Assembly: GCA_041660305.1 (NCBI GenBank)
Contig: JBAZWO010000005.1
Span: 10,247 to 74,246 of the forward strand
Direction of reading: 5' to 3'
DNA: 64,000 bases
From: Patescibacteria group bacterium
GTDB taxonomy: Bacteria > Patescibacteriota > Patescibacteriia > UBA9570
This document shows positions 1-64,000 of the stretch, piece after piece. Below the pieces are notes generated by a model that made no database searches, was not told the origin of the DNA, and saw nothing but the letters and a program-made list of their open reading frames with translations. Every line of letters begins with the position of its first letter. The stretch's first letter is position 1. The translations under genes and the position numbers were made by a program.

Positions 1-375
1 TACTGGTTTAAGCATGGCGTAAGCTAACATTACCATAATACCACTGCCAACCATGTGCACAAAATTATCATAGCGAAAAATATTAGGCAGTAAATAAAAA
101 TCATACAGGTGTACAGTGCCAATATAATAATTTCCACCCAGCATATGTAACAAACCTAATAATGATAAAGAAATAAGTACGATGGGGTAAAAATGCAGGC
201 GTTTGTTGATGAATAAAATAACGCCAATAGATAAAGCCATCACGGCCGTGTAATACACAAATTCCACGTTGCCGCGTACTAAAGCGTTAATCGCGAAAAT
301 ACTTACATAAAACAAGGTAAAATATACGATAAATTTTTCTAATTTTTGCGTGCGCGGCGATAAAGGTTTAGTCAT
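1..375 (-). CDS. Integral membrane protein, N-terminal part (gene runs off window start)
   Basis: Not in ORF track. Reverse-strand ATG at 373-375 overlaps the stop of 372..1226 (ATGA). Open to position 1. Translation MTKPLSPRTQKLEKFIVYFTLFYVSIFAINALVRG... is a series of hydrophobic helices. Confidence 0.5.
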   Translation of the reverse strand, partial: MTKPLSPRTQKLEKFIVYFTLFYVSIFAINALVRGNVEFVYYTAVMALSIGVILFINKRLHFYPIVLISLSLLGLLHMLGGNYYIGTVHLYDFYLLPNIFRYDNFVHMVGSGIMVMLAYAMLKPV

Positions 376-1226
376 GGTTTTACGATAATAATTACTTTCT
401 GGCCATTATTAACATCACCATTATTCCAATCATGTGCCGCTTTGTAAAGAGTCTCATATTTATATTGATAGTTAGCGCCGCGTTTAGTGCCCGGATCGTT
501 GGTGATTATTTTGGTAGCGGTGTAGCCTTTAATAACCAACATATGATACACCGGTCCGGGCGCGGTGTAATAAGGGTTGCCAATTTGGCGGCCGGCGGCG
601 GGTAAAATAACCGGATAACCTTGAGCGAGGGCTTGTTTTATATCGTCTAACGTAAAATCATAAATTAATTCTGTTTTAAAACCGTAAAATTGTTCCAGCG
701 ATTTAGCGGTTTCTGCCGCCGTCATATCAATCGGATACTTTAAATCATTAGCATTATAATTCACCAATTCCAAAATAGCTTTATCGGCATCACTAGCGCC
801 ATTAATAGAACGATTTTGTAAAAATCGAGCGCTCATTAGCATGCTAGCTTCCTCACAGGCTTCTTGATACGGCAAATTCCAATTCGCATACGGTGCTTGC
901 ACGGTAAACGGCACGGCTAAATTAATTGAATCGGGGATAGACATATTCACGTTTATCTCAGATGTAGAGACGCGCTGCAGCGCGTCTCTACTGGCGTCGT
1001 TCACATTTTGGTTTGTATTAACATTTTCATTATTAGAAACAGTATTAGTATTAATATCTTGAAACGACTGTACAGATATTTCCGGCGGTACCGGTTCTTG
1101 ATCTTTTTGATTATACCAATCGCGTAATGTGCTACGATTTAGATAAGCTAATCCAGCACAAATTATTAATAAAATAATAATTACCAAAATAATTTTACGT
1201 AACTTTTTATTTAGGCGTTGTACCAT
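372..1226 (-). CDS. Membrane-anchored C39-like (papain-fold) peptidase family protein
   Basis: N-terminal TM helix IILVIIILLIICAGLAYL. Block VPFTVQAPYANWNLPYQEACEEASMLM resembles C39-like peptidase domains. Carries an in-frame GTAG palindrome (peptide ALQRVSTSE). Confidence 0.5.
   Translation of the reverse strand: MVQRLNKKLRKIILVIIILLIICAGLAYLNRSTLRDWYNQKDQEPVPPEISVQSFQDINTNTVSNNENVNTNQNVNDASRDALQRVSTSEINVNMSIPDSINLAVPFTVQAPYANWNLPYQEACEEASMLMSARFLQNRSINGASDADKAILELVNYNANDLKYPIDMTAAETAKSLEQFYGFKTELIYDFTLDDIKQALAQGYPVILPAAGRQIGNPYYTAPGPVYHMLVIKGYTATKIITNDPGTKRGANYQYKYETLYKAAHDWNNGDVNNGQKVIIIVKP
964..991. repeat. REP-like GTAG palindrome, copy 1 (intragenic)
   Basis: GTAGAGACGCGCTGCAGCGCGTCTCTAC, a perfect 28-nt palindrome inside CDS 372..1226; reading frame stays open. 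Confidence 0.85.
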
Positions 1227-3202: not shown

Positions 3203-3613
3203 ATGATGAATACTAAACAAACACAAGACAGCATTGATTATTGGCGCAAAACTGCAGAGCATGATTATGATACTATGTGCGTTTTGTTTAAAACTAAACG
3301 CTATTCAGATTGTTTGTTTTTTGGACATATTATTTTAGAAAAGATTCTTAAAGCTCATGTAGTAAAAACTACTGGTCAGCAACCGCCTTATATTCATAAT
3401 CTTACTAAATTACATGAAGTGGCCGAGCTTAATTTAAACGAAAAACAGCTGGATTTTTTAGATGCAGTAAACGATTTTAATATTAGGGCTCGTTATCCGG
3501 AGCATAAATTAAAATTTTATCAACAATGTACTCTAAAATACACCCAGCCTTATTTTAAAAAAATCACAGAGTTATATCATGAATTATGTCAAAAATTGAA
3601 GCCAAAAAAATAG
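3203..3613 (+). CDS. HEPN domain protein (toxin of a HEPN/MNT pair)
   Basis: All-helical 136 aa with an R-x4-H type motif in NIRARYPEH. Overlaps the cognate minimal nucleotidyltransferase gene. Confidence 0.75.
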   Translation: MMNTKQTQDSIDYWRKTAEHDYDTMCVLFKTKRYSDCLFFGHIILEKILKAHVVKTTGQQPPYIHNLTKLHEVAELNLNEKQLDFLDAVNDFNIRARYPEHKLKFYQQCTLKYTQPYFKKITELYHELCQKLKPKK

Positions 3614-3900
3614 TCATTCAATATGCTCAGGCATTGCAAGCAGCCGATTATTCTTTTAGTGCTATTTATTTATTTGGTTCGCAAGTTAAAGGCACGGCCA
3701 ACAGTTGGAGTGATATTGATGTAGCTGTAGTATCAAATCGTTTACAACGTAATTATGATGCTAATCGTTTTGCTTTATGGAAAATAAGGCGGCAAGTTAA
3801 TCTTAACATAGAACCGCATGGTTTTACGGTTAAAGATTTTGCCAATAATGCTAATCCTATGGCTTATGAGATTCGTAAAACTGGTATTAGAGTAGTGTAA
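3586..3900 (+). CDS. Minimal nucleotidyltransferase (MNT antitoxin)
   Basis: Pol-beta NTase signature YLFGSQVKGTANSWSDIDVAVV. 28-nt overlap with the HEPN gene. Confidence 0.8.
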   Translation: MSKIEAKKIVIQYAQALQAADYSFSAIYLFGSQVKGTANSWSDIDVAVVSNRLQRNYDANRFALWKIRRQVNLNIEPHGFTVKDFANNANPMAYEIRKTGIRVV

Positions 3901-4007: not shown

Positions 4008-4634
4008 TTATTCAAACATCTTTCCAATCCAGGAATCATCTCTATCGCTATTCCAATGTTTTGGGTTATTTAAAATGTAATTACGCACATTGTTTAATTC
4101 CGGTTCGTTACGGATAACATGATCGTAAAATCGGGATTGCCATTTAAAATCGTAATATTTTCTTTTTCGACATTCTCTGGTAACCATGCCTTTGAATTGA
4201 TTGATCATTGAACCTAATGAATGCGGTTGCCATTCTATATGATGACGCGGATTATGTGGACGTGGTCCCGTAGAGACGCCCTGCCAGGGCGTCTCTACCG
4301 TTTCATTGCAATGCGTTTCTACATTATTATGTTTCCCAATACATATTAAATGATCATGATTTTTGTTAATAATCAAAATCCCATGCACATGATCCGGCAT
4401 CACAATAAATTGATCCAATGTTACATATGGTCGTAATAATGCCGTACGATACCATTCATTATAAATAATTTTCCCAATGTTATTCACGCACATGATATTA
4501 TTTTTAATATATCCAAAACAGGCAAAACGTTTTTTGGCACAAATGGTAACAAAATACCTGCCAGATTTGGTATAATTATAATTTGGCAAACGCGTAGACA
4601 AAACGCGATATTTATCCAAAAATAAATCAAACAT
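4008..4634 (-). CDS. REP-associated tyrosine transposase (RAYT, IS200/Y1 HUH family)
   Basis: HUH motif MPDHVHGILII and C-terminal catalytic-Tyr region VRNYILNNPKHW. Single gene without IS ends. Contains GTAG palindrome copy 2 in frame (VETPWQGVST). Confidence 0.8.
   Translation of the reverse strand: MFDLFLDKYRVLSTRLPNYNYTKSGRYFVTICAKKRFACFGYIKNNIMCVNNIGKIIYNEWYRTALLRPYVTLDQFIVMPDHVHGILIINKNHDHLICIGKHNNVETHCNETVETPWQGVSTGPRPHNPRHHIEWQPHSLGSMINQFKGMVTRECRKRKYYDFKWQSRFYDHVIRNEPELNNVRNYILNNPKHWNSDRDDSWIGKMFE
4270..4298. repeat. REP-like GTAG palindrome, copy 2 (inside the RAYT gene)
   Basis: GTAGAGACGCCCTG-C-CAGGGCGTCTCTAC, 14-bp arms. Confidence 0.85.
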
Positions 4635-4801: not shown

Positions 4802-4987
4802 GTTGGCACATTTGAAATGAAGTAACTGAAGGAAGTCTTGTTCATTACAACTAAATTTGGCAGGAAGTAGTAATACTGTGGGTGTTTTGCACACGGAATA
4901 AAAACGCATGATATATCCATATCATCGTGCTGTTTCACTCCGGGTGCATTAACCTTTCCGCAAATCCGCGGAAATGCACCCACCAAC

Positions 4988-5022
4988 AGTCGTTCAGCTG
5001 TGGCAAGCTGACGACTTTTTTT
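4988..5022 (+). terminator. Intrinsic terminator inside the 5' leader (attenuator or riboswitch expression platform)
   Basis: AGTCGTTCAGCT-gtggca-AGCTGACGACT followed by T7. It ends 5 nt before the SD AAAGGAG (5027-5033) of the 5040 CDS. Confidence 0.6.
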
Positions 5023-5039
5023 CAAGAAAGGAGCTTATA

Positions 5040-6185
5040 ATGAAGCTCAACGCCAATTCGATCGTTCGTGGTTTTTTCATGTCGCTGACTTTCCTTGCTT
5101 TGGCGGGGAATGAATCATGTCCTGGAGCCGATTCCGACATGGATGGCTATCAGGACGACGGAAATGGCGGAACTGACTGCGATGACGAGAACGCCTCTGT
5201 CTACCCTGGCGCCGTCGAGCTGTGTGATGGGCTGGACAATGACTGTGATTGGCAGGTGGATGAGGGGGTGGAATTGATCACTTTATATCCCGATGCCGAT
5301 GGCGACGGGTTTGGTGACATGTACACCACATGGACAGAGGAAGCCTGTGCCGTCCTCACCGGCTATGTCGCGGATCACACTGACTGCGATGACGCGGATG
5401 CCACCAGCTATCCCGGCGCTCCGGAGCTATGTGACGTGCTGGACAATGACTGCGACGGTTGGACCGACGAGCCGTCGGACAATGATGGCGACGGGTATAC
5501 TGGTAGCTGTAGCGGAAGCGGAGAGGACTGCAATGATGCAGATGCAGCGGTCAATCCGGAAGCGATCGAAACCTGCAATGGGGTAGACGATAACTGTGAC
5601 GGCTGGGTTGACTATGGAGTGATCGGCTACATGGATGCTGATCATGACGGGTATGGGGACGGCGATCCTATCCCGTCCGCAGTGAATTGCGGAAAACCGT
5701 TTACAGGAACCGGAAATTTCGTTTTTGTCGCGGGCGACTGCGATGACGAGTATCCTCACAGCTATCCTGGTGCCGCCGAGTTCGCCGATGGCAAGGACAA
5801 CGACTGTGATGGAGCGGTGGACGAAGACATGGACGTCGCGGACAACGACAACGACGGGCTTTCCGAAGCCCAGGGCGACTGTGTCGATACCAACTCGGCT
5901 GTTAATCCTGACGCGCAGGAAAGTTGTTACACCTATTTGGTGGATGATGATTGCGATGGTCGGGTTGATGTTGTTGATGTCTACGAAGACTTCGACAGTG
6001 ATCGCTGGGGTGGCCGGCCGCGCGGGTCAGTGGAATGCGAATACAGGTACACCGTCATATACCCTCTGGCCTCGGGGATACCTGGTGGCGACTGCAACGA
6101 CAACAACGCGGCTATCAATCCCGCGGCCACCGAAGTTGCCGATGGCAAGGACAACGACTGCGACGGCCTGATTGACGAGGAGTGA
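5040..6185 (+). CDS. Secreted Cys/Asp-rich repeat protein (MopE-type putative metal-binding motif repeats)
   Basis: Signal peptide MKLNANSIVRGFFMSLTFLALAG. Six units of DCDD-x5-PGA-x-E-x-CDG-x-DNDCDG-x-x-DE alternate with DxDxDG loops. Strong SD. 62% G+C in line 5401-5460. ATG 5040 preferred over track start 4974. Confidence 0.75.
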   Translation: MKLNANSIVRGFFMSLTFLALAGNESCPGADSDMDGYQDDGNGGTDCDDENASVYPGAVELCDGLDNDCDWQVDEGVELITLYPDADGDGFGDMYTTWTEEACAVLTGYVADHTDCDDADATSYPGAPELCDVLDNDCDGWTDEPSDNDGDGYTGSCSGSGEDCNDADAAVNPEAIETCNGVDDNCDGWVDYGVIGYMDADHDGYGDGDPIPSAVNCGKPFTGTGNFVFVAGDCDDEYPHSYPGAAEFADGKDNDCDGAVDEDMDVADNDNDGLSEAQGDCVDTNSAVNPDAQESCYTYLVDDDCDGRVDVVDVYEDFDSDRWGGRPRGSVECEYRYTVIYPLASGIPGGDCNDNNAAINPAATEVADGKDNDCDGLIDEE

Positions 6186-10128: not shown

Positions 10129-10195
10129 CCTACCTCATCCCCGCCCTTCGGGCACCCCTTCTCCTCTGAGGAGAAGGGGAAGGGGGGTTGAGGTC
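10129..10195. repeat. G+C-rich nested-hairpin element (CCTCTCC/GGAGAGG family)
   Basis: cctacctcatcccc...cttctcctctgaggagaagg...ggggttgaggtcc, immediately after the rpoD stop. Confidence 0.8.
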
Positions 10196-12817: not shown

Positions 12818-12822
12818 AATGG

Positions 12823-12922
12823 CCTACCTCACCCCCTACCCCCCTCTCCTCTGAGGAGAGGGGGAATAATGCGAACTTAATTCTCCCTTCTCCTTAGAGG
12901 AGAAGGGTTGGGGATGAGGTAG
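12823..12922. repeat. G+C-rich nested-hairpin element (double unit)
   Basis: cctacctcaccccctacccccctctcctctgaggagaggggg ... ctcccttctccttagaggagaagggttggggatgaggtag. Read through as the cysS C-terminal tail. Confidence 0.85.
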
Positions 12923-14311
12923 TATTTTTGGTCCATTAAGTGTATCTTCTATTTGATAACCCTTACTTTCAATTTTTCTTCGTAACATATCCGCTACCTC
13001 CCATTGTTTGGCGTCCCGTGCAATTTCGCGTTCTTCTACTAGTTGAGTAATTTCCGGCGGCACATTAGCGGCGGCACTAATCGCTTCGTGATAATAACCT
13101 TCTAAATGTAAACCTAATATTTTATCCATGGCAAATAACGTAGCTAATTTTTTTCCGCTATCTAAATGTGAGTGCAACATATTCCACATAACAGCCAACG
13201 CTTTGGGAGTATCTAAATCGTTATTTACTGCCATGGTAAAGCGTTCCATGGTTTCCGTATCAATTTCGGTAGCTTCATCGTATTCATAATCCACAATCAT
13301 GGCGCGTAAATTATTTAATGCGTTACTAGCGCCTGTTAATGCTTCGAACGTAAAATTTAATTTAGCGCGGTAATGCGCACCTAAACAAAAATAGCGATAG
13401 GCGAGCGGGTCATAACCTTTTTCTTTTAACAGGCTTATCGTTAAAAAATTGCCCTTGGATTTTCCCATGCGTTCAGCGTTGGTAAGCAAAAATTCACCAT
13501 GTAACCAATAATTAACCGTTACATGATGTAACGCACCTTCATTTTGGGCAATTTCATTAGTATGGTGTACTGGAACATGATCAATTCCACCGCAGTGAAT
13601 ATCAAAATGCTCGCCTAAGTATTTAATACTCATGGCCGAACATTCAATGTGCCAGCCAGGAAAACCTGTTTCCCACGGTGATTCCCATTCCATCAGCCGT
13701 TTAGGCTGCCCTGAGCTTGTCGAAGGGCTAAATTTCCATAAGGCAAAATCGGTAGCGTGTTTTTTTTCGCCGGTCTCAATGCGAGCACCGGCTTGCAAAC
13801 ATTTAATATCAAGTTTTGCTAGTTTACCGTAATCAGATAATTTACTAGTATCAAAATAAATCCCGTCACTAGTTTTATACGTAAAACCGTTTTGTTCTAG
13901 TTTTTTTATTAAATCAATTTGTTCTTTAATATGATCGGTAGCTTTGCACCAAATAGTCGGCGGCTGAATATTCAAATCGTGCAAATCTTGTTGGAACGCT
14001 TCCGTATAAAATTTAGCAATATCCCAAACTGATTTTTTTTCACGTTGAGCGCCTTGTTCCATTTTATCTTCGCCGCTATCGGCATCGTCAGTTAAGTGGC
14101 CAACATCGGTAATGTTCATAACATGGTTAACTGTATAACCAGCTAGTTCCAAAGTGCGCTTTAAAACATCTTCAAATAAATATGTGCGCAAATTTCCAAT
14201 ATGAGCATAATGATAAACCGTTGGCCCGCAAGTATATAAACCCACTTTATGTTCGTGGAGCGGTTTAAATAATTCCTTCTTACGAGTTAGAGTGTTGAAG
14301 AGATATAACAT
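12836..14311 (-). CDS. cysS: Cysteine--tRNA ligase
   Basis: HIGN ([12 protein letters not shown]), KMSKS variant RMGKSKGN, and PGWHIECS. The last roughly 27 aa are repeat-derived. Contains a 21-nt in-frame palindromic insert. Confidence 0.95.
13708..13728. repeat. 21-nt palindromic insert inside cysS
   Basis: GCCCTgagcttgtcgaAGGGC encodes STSSGQP between the conserved DFALWK and WESPW blocks. Confidence 0.6.
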
Positions 14312-14333
14312 AGTAATATTTTACACTATTTCT

Positions 14334-14356
14334 CGTGGATAAACCAGTTATCCACA
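14334..14356. promoter_or_regulatory. Inverted pair of DnaA-box-like 9-mers upstream of cysS
   Basis: CGTGGATAA-accag-TTATCCACA. The second half is the perfect E. coli-type DnaA box. Confidence 0.3.
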
Positions 14357-14384
14357 GATCTAGCCAAAAATATGATAAATCTAT

Positions 14385-14412
14385 TTGACGTTTTTTTTGA
14401 GCCAGTTATAAT
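14385..14412 (+). promoter_or_regulatory. Sigma70-type promoter of an orphan small transcript
   Basis: TTGACG, 16 nt, TATAAT. Confidence 0.5.
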
Positions 14413-14418
14413 GGCCAC

Positions 14419-14604
14419 AAAGCAAAGTTATGAATCACTCCCAAGCTCACAATTTTAGCCTCGTATCCGTGTTAAAACACACCCCACGTTGTTTTGTTAT
14501 TAATTATTATACACAACGCGGATTGAGACTAAACCCTGCCCACTAGCCTAAGTTAACCTGAAAACCAAAACAAGTCCCAATCCGCCAAACTAGGCGGATT
14601 TTTT
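14419..14604 (+). ncRNA. Candidate small RNA of about 185 nt, unknown family
   Basis: Bounded by the promoter above and the intrinsic terminator AATCCGCC-aaacta-GGCGGATT plus T4-5 (14579-14604). Only a 38-codon SD-less ORF inside. Confidence 0.35.
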
Positions 14605-14657
14605 CTACCTCTCCCTCTGTCCCTCCCCTATTAGGGGAGGGATGAAGGGTGGGGTAG
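14605..14657. repeat. G+C-rich nested-hairpin element
   Basis: ctacctctccctctgtccctcccctattaggggagggatgaagggtggggtag. Confidence 0.8.
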
Positions 14658-14740
14658 AACACTCCTCAACTAGCTCTTTACAACTAGGTAACGTAAGCAC
14701 TCACGTTTTTAAGCTTCGTTTTAATGTATTAAAACATGAA

Positions 14741-14828
14741 GCCGGGAATGGAAAAGATATTATCAACCGGTAGAGACGCCCCGCCGGGGCGTCTCTACAA
14801 AAACTATAATATCTGTTCCATTCCCGGC
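14741..14828. repeat. 88-nt composite hairpin tipped by REP-like GTAG palindrome copy 3 (14770-14798)
   Basis: GCCGGGAATGGAA / TTCCATTCCCGGC (13 bp), GATATTAT / ATAATATC (8 bp), then GTAGAGACGCCCCG-C-CGGGGCGTCTCTAC. Confidence 0.85.
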
Positions 14829-14888
14829 TCGTGGTATGAGCTGAGACTCCCCAGGCCGCCTCTGCGGCCGCTGTTAGAGGTGGTTAGT

Positions 14889-15104
14889 ATGCCAGGATTT
14901 GAACGAAGTACAGAAGCAAGGGCACGGAAGCTAGAGGATGTTTTTCCATGGAGGTCCAGCCAGATAGAGGGACTCCTGGACAGCTGCTCATCCGACGAGC
15001 AGTTAGTACGTGCTCTGGACAAGATCCAGGAAGAAGAGGACAGCGGGGCTCAAGAAAAGGGTGGGAGGGATCTTCGTCGCAGAAGCGATGAAGCTAGGCT
15101 GTAA
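14889..15104 (+). CDS. Small acidic hypothetical protein S1 (71 aa), G+C-rich, SD-led
   Basis: SD GAGGTGG (14877-14883) 5 nt before the ATG. 57% G+C in line 14941-15000. No homology recognised. Track ORF start 14736 lies inside the hairpin and is rejected. Confidence 0.35.
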   Translation: MPGFERSTEARARKLEDVFPWRSSQIEGLLDSCSSDEQLVRALDKIQEEEDSGAQEKGGRDLRRRSDEARL

Positions 15105-15209
15105 TAGGCCAGGAGGATGTGGAGGCAGGCTCCATGTGTGATGAGTGGTCGCAAGACTGTTCAACGCTGGGTATCCCGTCTTCATCTTTTCGCTTACGTT
15201 ACCCACCTT

Positions 15210-15240
15210 CTTCTGTTGATAATACACTTATCAACAGAAG
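15210..15240. other. Perfect 13-bp hairpin made of two DnaA-box-like half sites
   Basis: CTTCTGTTGATAA-tacac-TTATCAACAGAAG. Confidence 0.7.
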
Positions 15241-15380
15241 CTCGGTGGAGCAATTTGACACTTTTTTTACAAGCAGTACAATACTTTCACATGCAACATA
15301 CCCGCGTAATCATTAGCAACATTATTATTAGCCACCTGGTGGTTAGGTAGTTGTTGCACGCGAAATCTTGCAGCACTCTA

Positions 15381-15407
15381 GCCACCTTACCGGTGGCGTT
15401 TTTGTTT
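15381..15407 (+). terminator. Intrinsic terminator
   Basis: GCCACC-ttacc-GGTGGC followed by GTTTTTGTTT. Confidence 0.5.
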
Positions 15408-15424
15408 ATACAGGCTCTTTACAA

Positions 15425-15568
15425 TTCACCACTCTCGCTGTGTGTTGATTTGACCCTTCCCCCTGACCCCCTTCCCTGCAAGGCAGGGGGAAAATTAATT
15501 AATTATTCCCTCCCTCTTGCAGGAGGGAGGGTTAGGGTGGAAGGTCACTACACAGCGAGAGTGGTGAA
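15425..15568. repeat. 144-nt composite hairpin: 19-bp perfect outer inverted repeat around a G+C-rich nested-hairpin element
   Basis: TTCACCACTCTCGCTGTGT (15425-15443) pairs with ACACAGCGAGAGTGGTGAA (15550-15568). The interior matches the CCTCCC/GGGAGG family. Confidence 0.85.
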
Positions 15569-15595
15569 AAAAACGTTATCTTTTAGGAGGTCTCT

Positions 15596-15793
15596 ATGGA
15601 CACGGATTTGCAAAAAAAAATTAACGAATTATCTGGTAATTTTTTTGAGCTGAGGACTATGTCCTCAGCGTGTCTTCATGGTATTTCGCATGACGATGCT
15701 CGGTATACACCGAGCTATCGTGAATGTGCTGTAGCGGTAAAGGAGCTTAGGCTACAACTCGAAGCGCAGTCGATGGCCGATTGCCCCCTATAA
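15596..15793 (+). CDS. Small hypothetical protein S2 (65 aa), SD-led
   Basis: AGGAGG (15585-15590) 5 nt before the ATG. Followed by an 8-bp-closed hairpin, CAGGCACG...CGTGCCTG (15818-15856). No homology recognised. Confidence 0.45.
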   Translation: MDTDLQKKINELSGNFFELRTMSSACLHGISHDDARYTPSYRECAVAVKELRLQLEAQSMADCPL

Positions 15794-16003
15794 GGAGTCC
15801 GCTCGTTTTTTCGGAGACAGGCACGGGTATGATTTCACAATCATTACTCGTGCCTGCTCTCCACCCTCTTCTATTTCTTAACCAATTAGGCTAAATATTA
15901 CGTTATCATACTTTTCAACTGGCTTCATTTTTAATAATAATATAAAAGGAAAAGTAAGTTTTTGTTCTTTTCAAAATTAGCATCGATCTTTACATTATAT
16001 TCT

Positions 16004-16071
16004 CAGAGATTCGGGGTAAGAAAATAAGTTTATCATGCTTGATTAATTTATTTTGCTACCCCTAATCTCTG
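16004..16071. other. 68-nt hairpin upstream of S3
   Basis: CAGAGATTCGGGGTA pairs with TACCCCTAATCTCTG: 15-bp arms with one mismatch and a 38-nt AT-rich loop. Confidence 0.75.
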
Positions 16072-16122
16072 GAATTCACTAGAGAAGGGGTGATAATCTC
16101 CCGCATAGATAGGAGGCTAGAT

Positions 16123-16326
16123 ATGTGGGGAGGAAAAGATTTTTTGAAAAGCATTTCGGAAGAGGAAAGGGCCGTGCGGTATAATCGCACGGCCACGACC
16201 TCGGCCACGACCTCGGCCACGACCTCGGCCACGACCTCGGCCACGACCTCGGCCACGACCTCGGCCACGACCTCGGCCAAATCCGTTCCGGTGATCCCGT
16301 TGAGGGATCGATACCCAGGGATTTAG
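16123..16326 (+). CDS. Small repeat protein S3 (67 aa) with (ATTS)x7 core
   Basis: AGGAGG (16111-16116) 6 nt before the ATG. MWGGKDFLKSISEEERAVRYNRT-(ATTS)7-AKSVPVIPLRDRYPGI. A strong terminator follows. ATG 16123 preferred over GTG 16090. Confidence 0.5.
   Translation: MWGGKDFLKSISEEERAVRYNRTATTSATTSATTSATTSATTSATTSATTSAKSVPVIPLRDRYPGI
16191..16279. repeat. Perfect tandem repeat, 12 bp x 7.4
   Basis: GGCCACGACCTC repeated seven times without any mismatch, plus GGCCA. Preceded by the 9-bp hairpin GGCCGTGCG-gtataat-CGCACGGCC (16170-16194). Confidence 0.95.
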
Positions 16327-16329
16327 TTA

Positions 16330-16377
16330 GAGGACGAGTAGTTCGCTTAACGCGATGCTACTCGTCCTCATTTTTTT
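16330..16377 (+). terminator. Strong intrinsic terminator
   Basis: GAGGACGAGTAG ... CTACTCGTCCTC (12 bp), then A and T7. Confidence 0.8.
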
Positions 16378-16466
16378 AAAAAAAATAAACAGCACCATTT
16401 TTGGCCAAATACAGGTAATTATGTTAATCTTATAAATAATCAATTATTAATAAAAGCATTAATTTT

Positions 16467-16507
16467 CCCCCTCTCCTTTGAGGAGAGGGGGCTAGGGGGT
16501 GAGGTAG
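16467..16507. repeat. G+C-rich nested-hairpin element
   Basis: ccccctctcctttgaggagagggggctagggggtgaggtag. It abuts the ATG at 16509. Confidence 0.8.
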
Positions 16508-16508
16508 T

Positions 16509-19133
16509 ATGACCACAACACAATCATTTAAAAAATTACAACAACAATTACAGCGCCAATCTTATTTAGTGGCGGAGCATACGCAGCGAGCTCGTACCAT
16601 GATTATTTTGCCAGGTTTTTCATTGGATCCTCAGGAAATTGCTAAGTTAAAAGGCGCAGAATATTACGAAGAGCGGCTGCTTTATTTTATTGGGTATTTA
16701 CGAGATCCACAAACTAAGATTATTTTTGTAAGTTCTCGGCAAATTGATCCGGTAATTTTAGATTATTATTTTGATTTGTTTAGCAGTAATAAATCAGAGC
16801 GTAACAGCATGAAACAACATTGGCAGCATGTGTATGTGGGCAACGCCAAAACGCACCGGACGTTAACCGAAAAAGTATTACGGTCTCAGCGCTTATGTAA
16901 CCAAATTTTGCAACATATTACCGATAAAAAACTAGCCGTGATTCGGTGTTTTAATGTATCAGCTTCAGAAAAAGCACTGGCCGTAAAATTAAATATTCCA
17001 CTATTTGCTTCCGATCCAGATTTATTGGTATTGGGTTCAAAATCTGGTAGCCGAGCCATTTTTAAACAAGCTAAATTAGCTATACCAGTCGGCCGTGAAA
17101 ATATCTATAATTTTAATCAATTAATTTTGGCTATACAAAATATTAAAAAACAATATGCCAAAACTGAACAAGTTGTTTTAAAATATAATTATAGTTTTTC
17201 TGGAGTAGGCAATGCCATGTTAACAGTAAAAAAATGGCCGCGCGGCCAAGTAGCCACCGAGCAGTATATTAAAAAACATTTACGACCAAATGATAACACT
17301 GAAACGATTACAAATTATTTGGCCAAGTTTTTTCAGCTCGGCGGTATTGTAGAAGCTTGGTTAATAGGCGATGAAGTATTATCGCCTAGTGTACAAGTGC
17401 TGGTGTTGCCAAATAAAACCGTGGAATTGGTTTCAACTCACGAGCAAATTTTAGACGCAGTTACTAAACAGTTATATTTAGGAGCGCGTTTTCCAGCGCG
17501 TGATATTGTACACGCTGAAATATTGCGCCAGGCTAAGTTAATTGGCCAGCAAATGGCCAAACAAGAGGTGATTGGGCCATTTGGTATAGATTTTATTGCG
17601 GTAGAACAACATAAGCGGTGGCGGGCATTTCCAGTGGAAATTAATTTACGCAAAGGCGGTACCACGCATCCATTTCGAACAGTGCAGTTATTAAGTAATG
17701 GTCGGCAAGATGCTACCGGGCAATTATGTGATAAGCAAAAACAGCCGATTTATTATTGTGCGTATGATAATATTGTGTCTAATCAGTATAAAAAATTAGA
17801 GCCAGAACAATTAATTAAGTTAGTGCAGCATAGTGGCTTAGCCTACGATCCAGCTACCAATGTGGGAGTAACCTTGCATTTATTGGGGCCGTTAAAAAAA
17901 TATGGTAAATTTGGCGCTATTTGTATTGCGCACACAGCCACATCGGCTGAGCAGTTATTTTTGTTATTAAAACGAGCGGTGGATCGTTATGTGTTAGATC
18001 AATCAGTTTTAGAACAACAAACCAAAGTGGCTACGCTTTCTAAAGTAAATACTAATCGGCTAATTAAAAATTTTATTGAACTAGCTAAAATCGCTAGTCC
18101 ATCCGGTGAAGAACGGGTAATGGCCGAACGGATGCGCGAGCTATTAGTCCAAGCTGGGGCTAAGGTGCGCATCGATCAACGCGAAAACGTGATTGCTAAA
18201 ATAGATGGCACGGGAGCTTTTAGTGAGGCGGATCCTATTTTAATTTCCGCGCATTTAGATACCATTCATCCGGGTGTAAACATTCAACCGGTAGTGCGGG
18301 GTGATGTAATTATGAGTGACGGTACCACTATTTTAGGTGCTGATGATAAAGTAGCGCTCGCGTATATTGTAGAATTATTAAGAATTTTACAGGAACAAAA
18401 AATTACGCATCGACCGATAGAAATAATTTGTTCAGTGTGTGAAGAGCAATTTGCCCAAGGGGTAAAAGAGGTTGATTTTTCAAAAATAAAGGCACCGGTA
18501 GCGATTGTGTTAGATGGTGCTAGAATTGGTGAAATTGATGTATCTAGCCCATATATTGCCGATATTGTGGTGGAGGTAATTGGCAAAGCAGCCCATTCTG
18601 GTGTAGAGCCAGAGCGTGGAATTAGCGCCATTCAAATAGCGGCGCTAGCCATAGCAAAAATGAAATTAGGCAAAGTAGATGCCAGAACTACAGCTAATAT
18701 TGGTATTATTACCGGTGGAAAAAATCGTAACGTAATACCACCACAGGTTATTTTGGAAGGAGAAGTACGTGGTTTTTTAAAACAGCGTTTAGAAGAACAG
18801 CTAGAACACATGGAAAAAATGTTGCGCGATGCGGCGGAACATTTTGGTGGATTGTTATCGTTGCAAAACAAGCTTATTTTAGAAGGGTATCAAATTTCAG
18901 AACACGATCCAGATTTGTTGCGTCTAATGATGCTCATGAAACAAGTGCATATTCCAGCTAGATTACGGCAAACTAATGGCGCTTCAGATGCTAATATTAT
19001 GATGACGCGAGGTATTAAAGCGTTTGACATTGGTATTGGTGTACATCATCCTCATACTATCGAAGAACATGTGTATATTGCGGACATGGTAAAAATGGTA
19101 GAGCTGTTATTATTGCTGGTGACAAAAAAATAA
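16509..19133 (+). CDS. Fusion protein: N-terminal ATP-grasp-type carboxylate-amine/peptide ligase and C-terminal M20 (PepT-like) metallopeptidase
   Basis: The N-terminal ~500 aa (ILPGFSLDPQEIAKLKGAEYYEERLLYFIGYLRDPQTKIIFVSSRQIDPVILDYY) resembles, from memory, PGM1-related ATP-grasp ligases. The C-terminal ~370 aa carries SAHLDTIHPG, GADDKVALAYIVELL and HHPHTIEEHV, typical of M20 peptidases. Confidence 0.6.
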   Translation: MTTTQSFKKLQQQLQRQSYLVAEHTQRARTMIILPGFSLDPQEIAKLKGAEYYEERLLYFIGYLRDPQTKIIFVSSRQIDPVILDYYFDLFSSNKSERNSMKQHWQHVYVGNAKTHRTLTEKVLRSQRLCNQILQHITDKKLAVIRCFNVSASEKALAVKLNIPLFASDPDLLVLGSKSGSRAIFKQAKLAIPVGRENIYNFNQLILAIQNIKKQYAKTEQVVLKYNYSFSGVGNAMLTVKKWPRGQVATEQYIKKHLRPNDNTETITNYLAKFFQLGGIVEAWLIGDEVLSPSVQVLVLPNKTVELVSTHEQILDAVTKQLYLGARFPARDIVHAEILRQAKLIGQQMAKQEVIGPFGIDFIAVEQHKRWRAFPVEINLRKGGTTHPFRTVQLLSNGRQDATGQLCDKQKQPIYYCAYDNIVSNQYKKLEPEQLIKLVQHSGLAYDPATNVGVTLHLLGPLKKYGKFGAICIAHTATSAEQLFLLLKRAVDRYVLDQSVLEQQTKVATLSKVNTNRLIKNFIELAKIASPSGEERVMAERMRELLVQAGAKVRIDQRENVIAKIDGTGAFSEADPILISAHLDTIHPGVNIQPVVRGDVIMSDGTTILGADDKVALAYIVELLRILQEQKITHRPIEIICSVCEEQFAQGVKEVDFSKIKAPVAIVLDGARIGEIDVSSPYIADIVVEVIGKAAHSGVEPERGISAIQIAALAIAKMKLGKVDARTTANIGIITGGKNRNVIPPQVILEGEVRGFLKQRLEEQLEHMEKMLRDAAEHFGGLLSLQNKLILEGYQISEHDPDLLRLMMLMKQVHIPARLRQTNGASDANIMMTRGIKAFDIGIGVHHPHTIEEHVYIADMVKMVELLLLLVTKK

Positions 19134-21271: not shown

Positions 21272-21278
21272 ATAACAA

Positions 21279-21373
21279 CTTACCTCACCCCCTAGCCCCC
21301 TCTCCTCAAAGGAGAGGGGGAATTTTAATTTCTCCCTTCTCCTGTTTAGGAGAAGGGTCGGGGATGAGGTAGG
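21279..21373. repeat. G+C-rich nested-hairpin element (double unit)
   Basis: cttacctcaccccctagccccctctcctcaaaggagaggggg ... ctcccttctcctgtttaggagaagggtcggggatgaggtagg. Confidence 0.85.
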
Positions 21374-21444
21374 CATTTTGTTATTATGAAAATTACATGA
21401 AAAGTAATTTGGTGAATATTTTTAATTATTGTAAAATATAATAT

Positions 21445-44586: not shown

Positions 44587-46558
44587 AGCGCCAAGTTTAG
44601 CGGTTAGTGATCAAGTGGTTAATTTGTCTGATATTAATTATCCACGTTTAGCCAATCTTTATTTAAAAGCCCCCATTACAGATGCTGAAGTAGAACAGTT
44701 GGCTAAGTGGGATGTGTTGGTTTTTGGTATGCAACTACAAGACAGTTCAGCTGAACAAATAAGAGCGCTTCGCAAACTTAATCCAGATGTAATAATTTTA
44801 GCTTATGTAGCAGCTCAAGAATTTCCGGTTAGCCGGCTTGATGAGATTGAAAGCCAGAGCGGTCCATGGCATAAATTATACAGTGGTATTCAACCGGAGT
44901 GGTGGCTATATACATCAACCGGTGAAAGATTTTCCTCTTGGCCAGGAAATTATTCATTGAACATGGCTTCTGCTTGGAATACCTATCTACCAACTTTTAT
45001 GCAAAATGAAGTAATGTCCACTGGTCTGTGGGACGGTATTTATTATGATAATGTTTGGGAAACGGTTTCTTGGGTTGGAAATGGAGATATGGACATGAAT
45101 CGAGATGGTGTGCAAGATAGTGTTACCAGTTTAGACGAAGCTTGGTATAACGGCATGGTGACTATGTTAAAAACATCTCGTCAATTAGTTGGAAAAAATA
45201 AATTTTTGCTTGGCAACGGCGGCAGTGGATATAAGAAATATTTAAATGGTAGAATGTTTGAAAGTTTTCCAAATGTTTGGTTAGGAGCATGGGATAATAA
45301 TTTTGAGCTTTATAATGATTTTCAAAATAAAGGTTATGTACCGGCGTTAATCATGATTAATGGAGATACTAATAATAGTGGCAATGACAAAGATTATCAG
45401 GATATGCGTTTTGCAATTACTAGTACATTATTAAATGATGGGTTTTTTAGTTATGATTGGGGAACGAACGATCATTCTCAGCTCTGGTGGTACGATGAAT
45501 ACGATGCTGCCTTAGGCCAGTCACAGGAACGAGCTTATAATATACTGGATAAAGCTAATCCAACCAAAATTCAAGCGGGCGTGTGGCGGCGCAACTTCGA
45601 GCGGGGAATTGTATTATTAAATTCCACCGACAAAGAGCAAAAAGTTTTATTAGAAGATGGCTTCGAGAAGATATTAGGCACACAAGATACTAATACGAAT
45701 AATGGCAAGGTGGTTGGTAGTGTAACTATTCCCGCTCATGATGGTATTATTTTGCGTGGTCGTATTACTCAAGTGGTAAACGCGCCGTTCGTAAACGGTA
45801 CTTATGCCAAAGTGTTCGATGGTGCCGGCAACATTAAGCGTAATAGTTTTTTTTCGTATAATTCTAATTACGTGGGCAGTACTACCATTCAAAAAATACC
45901 GGATGCGAATATTACGGTAGTGAGTGATAATACCTATATTACCGTATATAAAAACAATAAACAGATTGCACGGTTTGCACCATATGGCACCAAATATAAT
46001 AGTGGTGTAAATATCGCTGTTGGGCAGTTGTCTCTTAAAAATAAAAAATATAATATTGTAGTAGGAGCGCAACGGGGCACTCAACCGGTAAAGCTATTTT
46101 CACTGAAAGGTAAACCATTAAATAAAGGTAGTTATCCGTTTGGCAATAGTTTTTCGGGTGGTATTAACGTAGCCATTGGTAATGTGCAACGTAAAACCAA
46201 AGCAGCCGAAATTATTGTGGCGCCGGCTAGTAATTACGCACCAGAAGTACGTATCCTTACCAAAAAAATGAAATTATTATCTAAAAAAATCATGGCCTAT
46301 AATGCTTCGATGCGTTCTGGTATTAGCGTAGCGGCGGGGGATGTAGATAATAACGGCAAAGTGGAAATTATCACCGTGCCTGGTACAGGTGGCGTGCCGT
46401 ATGTTAAAGTATTTAATAGCCGTGGTAAATTATTACGGCCAGGTTATTATGCCTTCAGTAAATCCGATCGCAGCGGCAGCAAAGTAACGGCCAGCGATAT
46501 TGATGGTGATAATGTGGCCGATGTAGTAGTTATGTCGTTTAATATTTTTAATCAATGA
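44537..46558 (+). CDS. Secreted glycoside-hydrolase-like (GHL-type TIM barrel) protein with C-terminal FG-GAP-like repeats
   Basis: Signal MRRLCLCIMLCCGLIPKAPSLA. The N-terminal half resembles hypothetical glycosyl hydrolase families. C-terminal GDVDNNGKVEII and SDIDGDNVADVVV. Confidence 0.5.
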   Translation: MRRLCLCIMLCCGLIPKAPSLAVSDQVVNLSDINYPRLANLYLKAPITDAEVEQLAKWDVLVFGMQLQDSSAEQIRALRKLNPDVIILAYVAAQEFPVSRLDEIESQSGPWHKLYSGIQPEWWLYTSTGERFSSWPGNYSLNMASAWNTYLPTFMQNEVMSTGLWDGIYYDNVWETVSWVGNGDMDMNRDGVQDSVTSLDEAWYNGMVTMLKTSRQLVGKNKFLLGNGGSGYKKYLNGRMFESFPNVWLGAWDNNFELYNDFQNKGYVPALIMINGDTNNSGNDKDYQDMRFAITSTLLNDGFFSYDWGTNDHSQLWWYDEYDAALGQSQERAYNILDKANPTKIQAGVWRRNFERGIVLLNSTDKEQKVLLEDGFEKILGTQDTNTNNGKVVGSVTIPAHDGIILRGRITQVVNAPFVNGTYAKVFDGAGNIKRNSFFSYNSNYVGSTTIQKIPDANITVVSDNTYITVYKNNKQIARFAPYGTKYNSGVNIAVGQLSLKNKKYNIVVGAQRGTQPVKLFSLKGKPLNKGSYPFGNSFSGGINVAIGNVQRKTKAAEIIVAPASNYAPEVRILTKKMKLLSKKIMAYNASMRSGISVAAGDVDNNGKVEIITVPGTGGVPYVKVFNSRGKLLRPGYYAFSKSDRSGSKVTASDIDGDNVADVVVMSFNIFNQ

Positions 46559-46663
46559 GCTACCTCTCCCCCTAACCCCCTCTCCTAATAGGAGAGGGGG
46601 AATAATCTAATTGCATTACTCCCTTTCCCCTGGTTAGGGGAAAGGGCTGGGGATAGAGGTAGG
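46559..46663. repeat. G+C-rich nested-hairpin element (double unit)
   Basis: ctacctctccccctaaccccctctcctaataggagaggggg ... ctccctttcccctggttaggggaaagggctggggatagaggtagg. Confidence 0.85.
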
Positions 46664-46695
46664 ACGTTTAGGGGGCTAGGAATCGAGATCGAAAT

Positions 46696-48408: not shown

Positions 48409-48492
48409 CCTACCTCTCCCTCTTTCCCTCCCCTATTAGGGGAGGGATGTCCGCCTGCCTGCCGGACAGGCAGGAAGGACAGGGATAGGTAG
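48409..48492. repeat. G+C-rich nested-hairpin element
   Basis: cctacctctccctctttccctcccctattaggggaggg ... ccgcctgcctgccggacaggcaggaagg ... agggataggtag. Confidence 0.85.
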
Positions 48493-53925: not shown

Positions 53926-54975
53926 ATGCGTATTTTGTTTATTACCAGAAAATACCCACCAAGCATTGGGGGAATGGAGCGGTATAGCGCAGATTTTTAT
54001 GTTACGTTTAAAGATCAGTGTACATTGTTAGCGTTAAAAAAACGTGCACAAGTTAATTTAATTTGGTGGTTGCCGTATGCTTTAATTAAAGGGATATGGT
54101 TGGCACGCAATGTAGAAGTGATCCATTTAGGCGATGGGGTATTGGCCTGGTTAGGAGTTTTACTACATTGGTTTACCGGCAAACCAATTTCTATTACATT
54201 ACACGGTTTAGATGTTACTTATAAAAAATATGGTTATCAGAAATTAATCTGGTCAGCGTTAAAACAATATCAGGCGATAATTTGTGTGAGCGAATATACC
54301 AGACATTTTGTAGAGACGCATTGCAATGCGTCTCTACAAAATATACACGTAATACCAAACGGTGTTCCGTTAAACAATTTGGTGGCACCTAAAACATTTA
54401 GCGCTCATGAAAAAACCAATCAAATCACCTTATTAACCGTAGGGCGCTTAGTACCACGTAAAGGCGTAGCTTGGTTTATTGAACAGGTATTTGTGCATTT
54501 AGATAAACAATATCATTATGTAATAATTGGTTCTGGTGTAGAATATAATTCTATTCAAGAAATAATTACACAAAAAAAATTAGGTGAACGCGTCCAGTTA
54601 TTAGGACGGGTAAATGATGAGGTTCTGCATGATTGTTATGCTCAAGCTGATCTGTTAATTATGCCAAATATTAAAGTGGATAATAATCCGGAAGGGTTCG
54701 GTATTGTAGCCTTGGAAGCAGGTGCTTGTGGCTTGCCAGTGCTAGCAGCTGACCTAGAAGGAATTAGAGCTGCCGTGATTGACGGACAGACCGGTTTTTT
54801 GGTAAAATCAGGCAGTCCTGAGGCTTGGAAACAGGCTATTGAAACACAGATTACACAGATAAAATTCATGATGTCACAGATGAATGAAAAATCAATAAAG
54901 CAGGCTGTGCAAGATAAATATTCTTGGGATGTTTTAAAGGAGCAATACCTTAACATATTTAATACGCTCATGTAA
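53926..54975 (+). CDS. Glycosyltransferase family 4
   Basis: MRILFITRKYPPSIGGMERY ... NPEGFGIVALEAGACGLPVLAADLEG. Carries two in-frame repeat inserts. Confidence 0.85.
   Translation: MRILFITRKYPPSIGGMERYSADFYVTFKDQCTLLALKKRAQVNLIWWLPYALIKGIWLARNVEVIHLGDGVLAWLGVLLHWFTGKPISITLHGLDVTYKKYGYQKLIWSALKQYQAIICVSEYTRHFVETHCNASLQNIHVIPNGVPLNNLVAPKTFSAHEKTNQITLLTVGRLVPRKGVAWFIEQVFVHLDKQYHYVIIGSGVEYNSIQEIITQKKLGERVQLLGRVNDEVLHDCYAQADLLIMPNIKVDNNPEGFGIVALEAGACGLPVLAADLEGIRAAVIDGQTGFLVKSGSPEAWKQAIETQITQIKFMMSQMNEKSIKQAVQDKYSWDVLKEQYLNIFNTLM
54310..54337. repeat. REP-like GTAG palindrome, copy 4 (intragenic)
   Basis: GTAGAGACGCATTGCAATGCGTCTCTAC, a perfect 28-nt palindrome encoding VETHCNASLQ. Confidence 0.85.
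54844..54885. repeat. CACAGAT-type dispersed repeat (intragenic)
   Basis: acacagattacacagataaaattcatgatgtcacagatgaat encodes TQITQIKFMMSQMN. Confidence 0.7.
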
Positions 54976-55027
54976 CCCACTGGGCTAAACCCAGGGGTTA
55001 CAACCCCCGGCTTTAGGCCGGTGGGTT
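54974..55027. repeat. AACCC...GGGTT hairpin family, double copy
   Basis: aacccactgggctaaacccaggggtt plus caacccccggctttaggccggtgggttg. Overlaps the GT4 stop codon. Confidence 0.8.
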
Positions 55028-55028
55028 G

Positions 55029-55280
55029 ATGAAAAGACGCCTTATGGCTCAACTTCAATTAAACGACAAATTATATGCGCAACTAGAAAACATTGTTAAA
55101 GACAGTAAAGAATTTAACGATGTAGCTAGTTATGTAAGTTATATTTTGGAGCAAGTAGTGCAAAAGAAATTACAGCAAGGCGCTACTACCAAAACGCCAA
55201 CTGATACTACCGGTAATTATTCCAAAGCTGATGAGGATAAAATTCGTGAGCGCTTAAAAAATTTAGGCTATCTGGATTAA
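55029..55280 (+). CDS. CopG/ribbon-helix-helix-like small regulator
   Basis: 84 aa with QLQLNDKLYAQLENIV (beta strand then helix) and a C-terminal RLKNLGYLD tail. Confidence 0.45.
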   Translation: MKRRLMAQLQLNDKLYAQLENIVKDSKEFNDVASYVSYILEQVVQKKLQQGATTKTPTDTTGNYSKADEDKIRERLKNLGYLD

Positions 55281-55290
55281 TTATAAAATT

Positions 55291-56439: not shown

Positions 56440-56475
56440 GCTCGTGAGGACACTCACCCTCTTTATTTTTTAATT

Positions 56476-57477: not shown

Positions 57478-57486
57478 CTATATAGT

Positions 57487-59849: not shown

Positions 59850-59854
59850 TTTTT

Positions 59855-61952: not shown

Positions 61953-62067
61953 ATAAAATAAGTAATTGGTAATTAGTAGTTAGTTGCTATATACTATTTA
62001 CCACATAGTATAAAACAAAACAAGTAACCTTATGCACAGGTTAGGTTGAAGCTATAATTATAGAGCA

Positions 62068-63318: not shown

Positions 63319-64000
63319 TTAAATGTTAATGTCAACTCTCACCAACCCTCTTACTGAATTACAAATATAAACTTTATCAGCTTCTTTTAAGTCTTGTTTA
63401 GTAAGGATTTTTTCGGTAACGTTGTGAGTGTTCATGAAATAAGCGCGGTAGATGCCAGGCAATAAGCCACAGGCAACCGGGGGAGTAAAATATTTATTAT
63501 TTTTTTTGATAATAATATTATGAATAGATCCTTCAGTGATTTCATTATTTTTATTACAAAATAACACATCAGTATAACCTAGCTTAGAATATTTTTTATA
63601 CTCTTTATTATATAAAGCCCGGTTGGTAGTTTTATGATATAAAAATATATTTGTTGGGTCGGTTTTATGTTTGGAAAAAATAACCTTGCCAATTGGTTTT
63701 TGTTTGGTAGAGACGTTGCATGCAACGTCTCTACCGGTAATCGTTACATGACCTGTTTGATCTAATAATATTCTTATTTTATATGGTTGGTTCTTGGATA
63801 AATGCCGTTTGGCATATTGGTGTAATTGTTTTTTTAAAGCCGGTAAAGAAAATTGATAAGAAAAATATTTAGCGGAATTTTTTAAACGCTGTAAGTGTTC
63901 ATTTAATAACCCATAATCATTTTTCCATAAGATAGTTTCAATTAATTGAAATGGTTTTTGGGTGTGTGTTAAAAATTTCGCTTTTAACAAGCATTCTTGA
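63319..64000 (-). CDS. Class IV aminotransferase fold protein (aminodeoxychorismate lyase-like); 5' end may lie beyond the window
   Basis: EITEGSIHNIIIKKNNKYFTPPVACGLLPGIYRAYF. The frame stays open upstream of TTG 63990 to the window edge. Carries GTAG palindrome copy 5. Confidence 0.65.
   Translation of the reverse strand, partial: QECLLKAKFLTHTQKPFQLIETILWKNDYGLLNEHLQRLKNSAKYFSYQFSLPALKKQLHQYAKRHLSKNQPYKIRILLDQTGHVTITGRDVACNVSTKQKPIGKVIFSKHKTDPTNIFLYHKTTNRALYNKEYKKYSKLGYTDVLFCNKNNEITEGSIHNIIIKKNNKYFTPPVACGLLPGIYRAYFMNTHNVTEKILTKQDLKEADKVYICNSVRGLVRVDINI
63707..63734. repeat. REP-like GTAG palindrome, copy 5 (intragenic)
   Basis: GTAGAGACGTTGCATGCAACGTCTCTAC, a perfect 28-nt palindrome encoding DVACNVST on the reverse strand. 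Confidence 0.85.

Follow-up and report, generated by a model that had tools for sequence, protein, structure and literature searches.

A RAYT transposase of subclass 2.4 type and candidate cognate double-foot REPs, most of them in frame within genes, in a Patescibacteria genome

Subclass 2.4 of the TnpA-REP transposases was defined by Quentin et al. 2018 (BMC Genomics 19:475, PMC6006769) and corresponds to RAYT group 4 of Bertels et al. 2017. Its members are about 194 amino acids (aa) long, carry the motifs NH[IFV]H, WQ and YIxNNP, and are found in Cyanobacteria, Bacteroidetes and various other phyla; the distance between their HUH motif and the tyrosine is 88 aa, compared with 58-67 aa in most subclasses, and their repetitive extragenic palindromes (REPs) are of the 'double foot' form, with 5' GT[AG]G and 3' C[TC]AC (PMC6006769). 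The feature unique to this subclass is that REPs occupy the interval between HUH and Y of the tnpA-REP gene itself and leave its reading frame intact (PMC6006769). Group 4 extends over 17 classes, and the 16-mers flanking its genes are rare, at about 14 per replicon (Bertels et al. 2017, PMC5581495). Intragenic REPs tagged with GTAG or CGTC have also been described in several species (Di Nocera et al. 2013, PMC3733652). Here we analyse a 64-kb stretch of DNA (the window) from a metagenome-assembled genome (MAG) of a Patescibacteria group bacterium, which very probably holds a RAYT of subclass 2.4 / group 4 type and the double-foot REPs cognate to it, acting in the way proposed below. The kind of system, including the exact sequence family, is already published, and what is new is the host lineage. 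The novelty implied by the initial annotation of this DNA, made from the sequence alone, has therefore to be given up, since both subclass 2.4 with in-frame REPs in its own gene (PMC6006769) and intragenic REPs (PMC3733652) were on record.

The RAYT / TnpA-REP gene occupies positions 4008..4634 on the minus strand and encodes an intact 208-aa HUH/Tyr enzyme of the Y1 kind and subclass 2.4 type, a domesticated transposase of the single-strand-DNA kind. This open reading frame (ORF) is identical to entries named 'MAG: transposase [Patescibacteria group bacterium]' at NCBI and 'REP element-mobilizing transposase RayT' at JGI. The HVHGIL string and the YxxxNP tyrosine singled out in the initial annotation are both present, the latter as YILNNP; this string and WQ (W165, Q166) match subclass 2.4, and the HUH string reads DHVH, D standing in the place of N. 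In an alignment of 35 RAYT homologues, H82, H84, Y186 and N190 are invariant, and W165, Q166, D171, H172 and R175 are spaced as W94, Q95, E100, H101 and R104 of the E. coli enzyme. It is to this WQ...DH..R stretch that the GTAG-reading residues of E. coli TnpA-REP correspond (residues named in PMC6006769). The AlphaFold model has a core with pLDDT >90 and a disordered, low-pLDDT loop at about residues 97-139; its top Foldseek match is 4er8_A, E. coli TnpA-REP in complex with a REP hairpin, and next in rank are the TnpA proteins of IS608 and ISDra2. No other Y1-type ORF is present in the window, and inspection of the neighbouring genes revealed no adjacent tnpB-like partner, in agreement with the earlier description of a single-gene RAYT, the only one in this DNA.

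The palindromes were searched for across the whole window with the pattern GTAGAGACG-N(6-14)-CGTCTCTAC, the chance level being taken from dinucleotide shuffles. Five exact matches were obtained, all with a spacer of 10 or 11 nucleotides (nt), against 0.00 in the shuffles, and they begin at 964, 4270, 14770, 54310 and 63707, precisely where the initial annotation had placed them. Its count of three perfect palindromes was also right (three copies are 28-nt perfect palindromes, and the other two are 29 nt long with a single unpaired central base), but it understated their regularity: a scan for all perfect hairpins showed that every copy has a perfect 14-bp stem with at most one base in the loop. 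The outer 9 bp are constant, while the inner 5 bp differ from copy to copy and are always paired. Folded as single-stranded DNA (ssDNA), the copies reach -14 to -17 kcal/mol (z = -5 to -10), and all five have the GTAG/CTAC double-foot form (5' GT[AG]G ... C[TC]AC 3'). They are thus REPs in the sense of GTAG-tagged palindromes of 28-29 nt that occur above chance, at a density of five copies in about 70 kb, and this low number agrees with the abundance of the 16-mers flanking group 4 genes (PMC5581495). Table S1 of PMC6006769 includes, for subclass 2.4, the sequences GTAGAGACGCACGGCCGTGCGTCTCTAC (CaggA01) and GTAGAGACGTTGCATGCAACGTCTCTAC (CyspE01), and the latter equals the 28-mer at 63707 base for base.

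The copy at 964-991 lies in the ORF 372..1226(-), in an unconserved N-terminal linker of a C39-like peptidase (Peptidase_C39_2 of Pfam, E = 1.8e-9, above the cut-off), where it encodes RDALQRVSTSE. The 29-nt copy at 4270-4298 is within the RAYT ORF and encodes VETPWQGVST; it abuts a half-decayed second REP unit at 4299-4322 (inner part CATTGCAATG, arm CGTTTCTAC), which encodes VETHCNET and retains GTAGAAACG at 4314-4322 with one mismatch. The copy at 14770-14798 is intergenic, in a 2.2-kb stretch without a convincing gene. The copy at 54310-54337 belongs to a GT4 glycosyltransferase ORF, 53926..54975(+), in which it encodes VETHCNASLQ (residues 129-138); its complementarity runs 5 bp past the feet (54305-54342, ATTTT...AAAAT), giving a 19-bp stem. 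The copy at 63707-63734, with the 28-mer already mentioned, encodes RDVACNVST in a class-IV aminotransferase-like ORF, 63319..63990(-), whose homologues carry PF01063. Four copies are therefore in frame inside recognisable genes, and every peptide quoted in the initial annotation is found in the ORF translations. The mainly extragenic location by which REPs are recognised in Di Nocera et al. 2013 is not seen in the window, with four of the five in ORFs.

For comparison, the palindrome was sought in other organisms, using one genome per species; at least 120 stretches were listed, with 130 copies, or 135 when the five of the window are included. Because only the outer arms were prescribed in the search, pairing of the inner bases is not an effect of ascertainment; perfect inner complementarity was observed in 94 of the 135 copies, against 0.13 expected, and 28 more had one mismatch. 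Both-sided changes occur at all five inner pairs: 58 distinct 28-mers yield 133 such cells and the shuffles 41; none of 500 shuffles reached the observed level, and no slid register approached it. The bases next to the palindrome are also non-random, with a preference for T at -1 and A at +1, and the stem continues at least 4 bp past the feet in nine of the 135 copies, where about 0.5 (135/256) would be estimated by chance. The use of two reading frames, the occurrence in unrelated proteins and at intergenic sites, and the covariation of the hairpin support the view, in line with the initial annotation, that these palindromes are DNA elements and not conserved peptides.

Several observations link the palindromes to the enzyme. 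In the AlphaFold model, the segment encoded by the RAYT-internal copy sits in the disordered loop between the HUH strand and the next helix. The peptides VET....SL(Q) and RD....R(LY/VST) are the two stop-free readings of the palindrome, and RAYT homologues from Patescibacteria, Bacteroidota, Cyanobacteria and other groups bear such peptides in the variable loop that follows HUH, in some cases more than once or in further loops. For the three host proteins a strict REP-peptide pattern was matched by 3 of 390 homologues, for the RAYT by 31 of 94 (Fisher P = 3e-21), so that REP-coded peptides show an enrichment of about 63-fold in RAYT 2.4 genes relative to other gene families. The family typically carries REP-derived units in tandem in this loop (homologue alignment; PMC6006769), and the median HUH-Tyr distance is 80 aa in proteins without a REP-type peptide, 86 aa in those with one and 113 aa with two (a single case). 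Among the matches listed from other phyla, the palindrome was located within a RAYT-like ORF or at its 5' edge in all six stretches holding a RAYT. The pairing of the enzyme with these REPs, first proposed in the initial annotation, is supported by the fold, by the conserved residues and by the REP-coded peptides of the homologues.

The reference system for enzymes of this type is the E. coli TnpA-REP / REP-BIME system, reportedly described by Ton-Hoang in 2012 and by Messing in 2012 (PDB 4ER8). With it the locus shares the monomeric Y1 HUH fold, a hairpin with a GTAG foot, the W/Q/H/R positions and a single-copy gene without tnpB. In contrast, the extragenic REPs of E. coli are single-footed with bulged stems; there are hundreds of them, grouped in bacterial interspersed mosaic elements (BIMEs) flanking the gene, and the enzyme itself is of subclass 2.2 (DHLH/WE/YIHYNP), without the insertion domain. 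The TnpA proteins of IS200/IS605 elements (IS608, ISDra2) resemble the RAYT of the window in their HUH/Tyr fold and ssDNA hairpin recognition, as judged from the structure match; unlike them, it has no subterminal left and right hairpins in its flanks and no tnpB, is single-copy in about 70 kb, and its gene shows no sign of being a mobile unit. The REPs of Di Nocera et al. 2013 and the Rickettsia palindromic elements (RPEs) are likewise short palindromes placed in frame in loops or linkers of genes of known function, but the former inserts are often dimers adding 20-30 aa and RPE-1 is longer still, whereas the REPs of the window are single 28-29-nt units of about nine codons, with little or no net lengthening. 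With subclass 2.4 the agreement is far-reaching, comprising WQ and YIxNNP, a length of about 200 aa, a REP-derived insertion between beta3 (HUH) and helix C, double-foot REPs, in-frame REPs in tnpA-REP, low copy number and a patchy distribution over many phyla. The differences are the host, a Patescibacteria MAG of the candidate phyla radiation (the word 'Patescibacteria' has 0 occurrences in the text of PMC6006769), the DHVH string, the lack of flanking REPs within 1 kb, and the location of four of the five copies in genes, in a compact genome.

Among the matches listed, the arms of the palindrome are shared by more than 12 phyla and also appear in viral contigs. The lineages represented include Bacteroidota, Cyanobacteria, Chloroflexota, Desulfuromonadota, Acidobacteriota, Omnitrophota, Zixibacteria, Ignavibacteriales, Rhodothermales, Planctomycetaceae, Binatia, Spirochaetales, Methylococcales, Patescibacteria and Gracilibacteria, and the 29-mer at 14770 is identical in a Chloroflexaceae genome (L012) and a Dehalococcoidia genome (L030). 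An all-against-all blastn comparison of 120 listed genome stretches revealed no orthologous palindrome sites; two stretches (L102 and L111) have common flanking genes, with the palindromes at different places. In contigs of IMG/VR (L132-L251) we noted at least 150 copies in at least 120 stretches, of which 53 are perfect and 84 lie in ORFs of at least 100 aa; phages may be acquirers or carriers of GTAGAGACG-type REPs.

The suggestion that these REPs prefer coding insertion is not borne out. The window is 88.6% coding, so that four or more of five copies in ORFs is what chance gives (P = 0.90), and elsewhere 60 of the 130 listed copies lie in stop-to-stop ORFs of at least 100 aa (5 in RAYT ORFs and 55 in others, with 70 in short ORFs or none), a strong depletion relative to about 85% coding (P ~1e-24). 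Long-ORF hosts in other genomes include an ABC transporter (between domains), a leucine-rich-repeat protein (inside its C-terminal secretion sorting domain) and a pullulanase-type enzyme. The arm reads TAG in only one frame, and the element equals its reverse complement; whichever way it lies, two of the three frames are therefore open, and both are used (17 against 13 in the long ORFs listed). That every host ORF stays open is thus explained by the availability of frames together with purifying selection, and not by a preference.

How the REPs are accommodated in their host genes can be followed best in GT4. The segment from CVSxxT to VIPNG is 16 aa long in the window, whereas its modal length is 15 aa in 68 homologues and the nearest homologue has 12; the window protein is therefore longer by one codon than most orthologues and by four (12 nt net) than the nearest, which has GTA CGA CAG CAT at the place of GTA GAG ACG CAT. 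In two other Patescibacteria lineages with a syntenic GT4 gene, REPs are found at two different positions of the interdomain linker, which measures 18-19 aa in P0127/P0136 (17-19 in REP-less sisters) and 18-19 aa in P0132/P0131/P0142 (18 in REP-less sisters). P0127 and the REP-less P0140 share 15 identical upstream bases, GATATAAATAAATTT, and then differ over exactly 27 nt, occupied by the REP in the former and by a (TCAATTT)x3-like segment in the latter. At the same orthologous site, the inner stems of P0127 (CAAAATTTTG) and P0136 (AAGCATGCTG) are wholly unlike, and the foot of P0136 is altered on both sides, from GTAG/CTAC to GCAG/CTGC; a compensatory central change distinguishes P0132 (CGATTAATCG) from P0131/P0142 (CGATATATCG). 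The orthologue loci of other Patescibacteria that show such compensatory REP evolution, or that represent REP-less sisters, are L125:1553-1580, L127/L128, L123 and L126. The REP-less linkers do not look like decayed REPs, as only 7 of 27 bases match when compared by eye, which is about the random level.

The aminotransferase-like REP occupies a variable loop, with a net gain of 3 to 5 aa over homologues, and the C39 copy is surrounded by about 60 residues that are unconserved in an alignment of orthologues. The net length change of the host proteins is therefore 0 to +5 aa, and a gain of tens of residues of the RPE kind was not seen. An insert of about 10 aa, as expected in the initial annotation, does not describe the GT4 case, where resident residues give way to REP-coded ones and the net difference from orthologues is 0 to +4 aa. 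In the predicted structures, the REP-coded segment of the RAYT falls in the disordered loop, and residues 129-138 of GT4 are modelled as a helix end plus a loop (pLDDT >90). Solved GT4 and aminotransferase structures were too distant in sequence alignment for indels to be placed.

Starting from the observed sequences, fold, family match, covariation and distribution, we infer binding, cleavage and the mode of spread from the E. coli TnpA-REP. Either strand of a REP, when single-stranded, would fold as a 14-bp hairpin with a GTAG foot, and the two feet would make it the same substrate on both strands. The outer 9 bp (GTAGAGACG/CGTCTCTAC) would form the conserved recognition part that determines specificity, and the inner 5 bp would be free to vary provided that pairing holds. 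By analogy with the E. coli enzyme, a monomeric HUH/Tyr protein may bind the hairpin, read the GTAG foot through W-Q...D-H..R, and cut and rejoin ssDNA, by which REPs would be dispersed or exchanged at low copy number. Copies would last only where they are harmless, which in this gene-dense genome would be in intergenic DNA or, in either stop-free frame, in linkers and loops. The copies inside the RAYT gene, tolerated in a disordered loop, would keep enzyme and substrate physically linked, a linkage that fits the identity of the arms across phyla.

A number of findings weigh against this combination of enzyme, substrate and mechanism. The RAYT scores below the cut-off with both domain models, PF01797 of Pfam (Y1_Tnp; 18.8 bits, cut-off 23) and NF047646 of NCBIfam (REP_Tyr_transpos; 49.4 bits, E = 4e-13, cut-off 80). 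Both models cover only the C-terminal half of the protein, and many homologues do carry PF01797; we attribute the low scores to the REP-derived loop, which splits the domain. The HUH string is DHVH in place of the published NH[IFV]H, and both PNH.H and PDHVH are present among the 94 homologues. Within 1 kb outside the RAYT ORF there is no half site, either full or with one mismatch, and apart from the internal copies the REP nearest to the gene is the one at 964, 3 kb away; REPs flank the tnpA-REP gene (about 1 kb, the REPtron) in the 'large majority' of cases, not in all (PMC6006769). The inner stems differ in all five copies of the window, so that none is an obvious recent copy of another, and simple insertion would not predict the length-neutral use of GT4 codons. 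Of the stretches holding the palindrome, only six among at least 120 from genomes contain a RAYT, and none of at least 120 from viral contigs has a RAYT ORF; these stretches are short (about 2-15 kb), so the rarity of a nearby RAYT is weak evidence. To our knowledge, finally, binding, cleavage and rejoining of ssDNA at a REP are known only for the E. coli enzyme of subclass 2.2.

The GT4 data raise the alternative that REPs enter genes as cassettes, a 27-30-nt segment being swapped for a resident one of equal length without added DNA, either because the RAYT cuts at both feet or through short-patch conversion. We regard this as unlikely, despite three independent GT4 acquisitions that each changed the length by no more than one codon relative to most orthologues, the exact 27-nt difference between P0127 and P0140, the wholly different stems and both-sided foot change at one orthologous site, the compensatory central change at another, and the similarity of the native sequence in the nearest orthologue to the REP arm that overlies it in the window. 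Insertion followed by a compensating deletion, under selection for linker length, would give an identical picture; in RAYT genes the REP units do lengthen the HUH-Tyr distance (80 -> 86 -> 113 aa), and the aminotransferase has grown by 3 to 5 aa. Moreover, the nearest REP-less relatives are just 60-70% identical, also among the GT4 sequences of JGI metagenomes, and no true empty site was seen. The wider proposal that, in coding DNA, a foot-bounded cassette of about 27-30 nt first takes the place of resident sequence of the same length, and afterwards of the inner stem of REPs already there, appears quite unlikely. If true, it would mean a swap with cuts at both feet catalysed by the RAYT, or obligate short-patch conversion; such a mode of action has no described precedent among HUH transposases, and it would explain how perfect palindromes with identical arms and different cores come to lie in frame in compact genomes. 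A fossil system, in which the RAYT now moves nothing and old REPs are kept palindromic by intrastrand (quasi-palindrome) templated correction, also seems improbable. It would account for the five different inner stems, the density of five copies in about 70 kb, the absence of REPs flanking the RAYT gene, and the survival of orthologous GT4 copies through some 30% of protein divergence while mutations accumulate in their arms. Against it, the catalytic and GTAG-reading residues of the RAYT are intact, five GC-rich perfect 14-bp stems in a genome of 38% GC point to recent origin or active maintenance, and the fresh and decayed tandem units of the RAYT gene suggest repeated events.

It is very unlikely that the palindromes are elements of the host that have nothing to do with the RAYT (the site of another factor, a restriction-type site or an RNA hairpin) and are present in RAYT genes by accident. 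Their arms do hold inverted CGTCTC sites (CGTCTC/GAGACG), the hairpins would form in mRNA too, and most of the genome stretches and all of the viral stretches listed are without a nearby RAYT; however, such elements would leave unexplained the roughly 63-fold enrichment in RAYT 2.4 genes, the GTAG foot shared with biochemically characterised REPs, the independent published association with subclass 2.4 (PMC6006769) and the unrelated, non-orthologous sites. Intrinsic terminators in particular were ruled out, because the flanks of the aligned copies contain no T-run 3' of the hairpins. Searches with Rfam, of the window and, at a relaxed threshold, of 14300-16520, returned only a tRNA and sub-threshold matches to generic hairpin (miRNA) models. 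The reading in which VET..SLQ and RD..RVST are selected protein motifs, with palindromy as a by-product, is effectively refuted. In its favour, these peptides are found again in RAYT homologues from several phyla, but one DNA sequence is read in two frames and found in non-coding DNA as well, the proteins are unrelated and the positions unconserved, the RAYT peptide falls within a disordered loop, and the inner bases vary together as base pairs and not as codons.

A subclass 2.4 / group 4 RAYT with cognate in-frame REPs thus extends a published class to a Patescibacteria genome. This is useful for annotation, as the 28-mers yield spurious 'VETHCNASLQ / GRDAPPGRLY' peptides and break assemblies; by itself, the finding opens no new question. 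Three observations possibly go beyond published accounts: the presence of identical arms in many phyla and in viral contigs, the strong covariation of the inner 5 bp, and the nearly length-neutral occupation of GT4 codons with turnover of the inner stem at orthologous sites. If confirmed by strain-level data and biochemistry, the shared arms, covariation, length neutrality and stem turnover would bear on how REPs spread and persist.

De Bruijn assemblies are broken by these perfect palindromes: a contig assembled independently from the same organism (L122, Logan contig SRR18595301_587823) equals window 54313-63733 and ends exactly inside the palindromes at 54310 and 63707. A second assembly (L121) reaches 6 kb beyond the window start and has no further copy of the palindrome in that part.

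On one side of the RAYT gene lies a HEPN/nucleotidyltransferase (MNT-type) pair at 3203-3900, and on the other a MopE-like gene at 4974-6185, which encodes a Cys/Asp-rich repeat protein; a MazE/PemK pair is present at about 62.7-63.3 kb of the window. The stretch 14311-16509, 2.2 kb without a long ORF, contains one GTAGAGACG REP, three hairpins of a second palindrome family and a tandem repeat (GGCCACGACCTC, about 8 units) at about 16190-16285.

The second family is the commoner one, with 12 hairpins of the form CCCCCTCTCC-loop-GGAGAGGGGG in the window and tails CTACCTCACCCCCTA / TTGGGGATGAGGTAG. They are found at 10155-10179, 12820-12925, 14620-14642, 15508-15531, 16467-16491, 21276-21375, 46556-46665, 48425-48447 and 53884-53906. 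At three places the hairpins are paired in inverted orientation, resembling REPINs or miniature inverted-repeat transposable elements (MITEs) of about 100 nt with termini CTAC...GTAG. Most hairpins of this family directly follow stop codons, and some supply the C-terminal residues of proteins, as in CysRS, which ends ...SPSPQRRGG.

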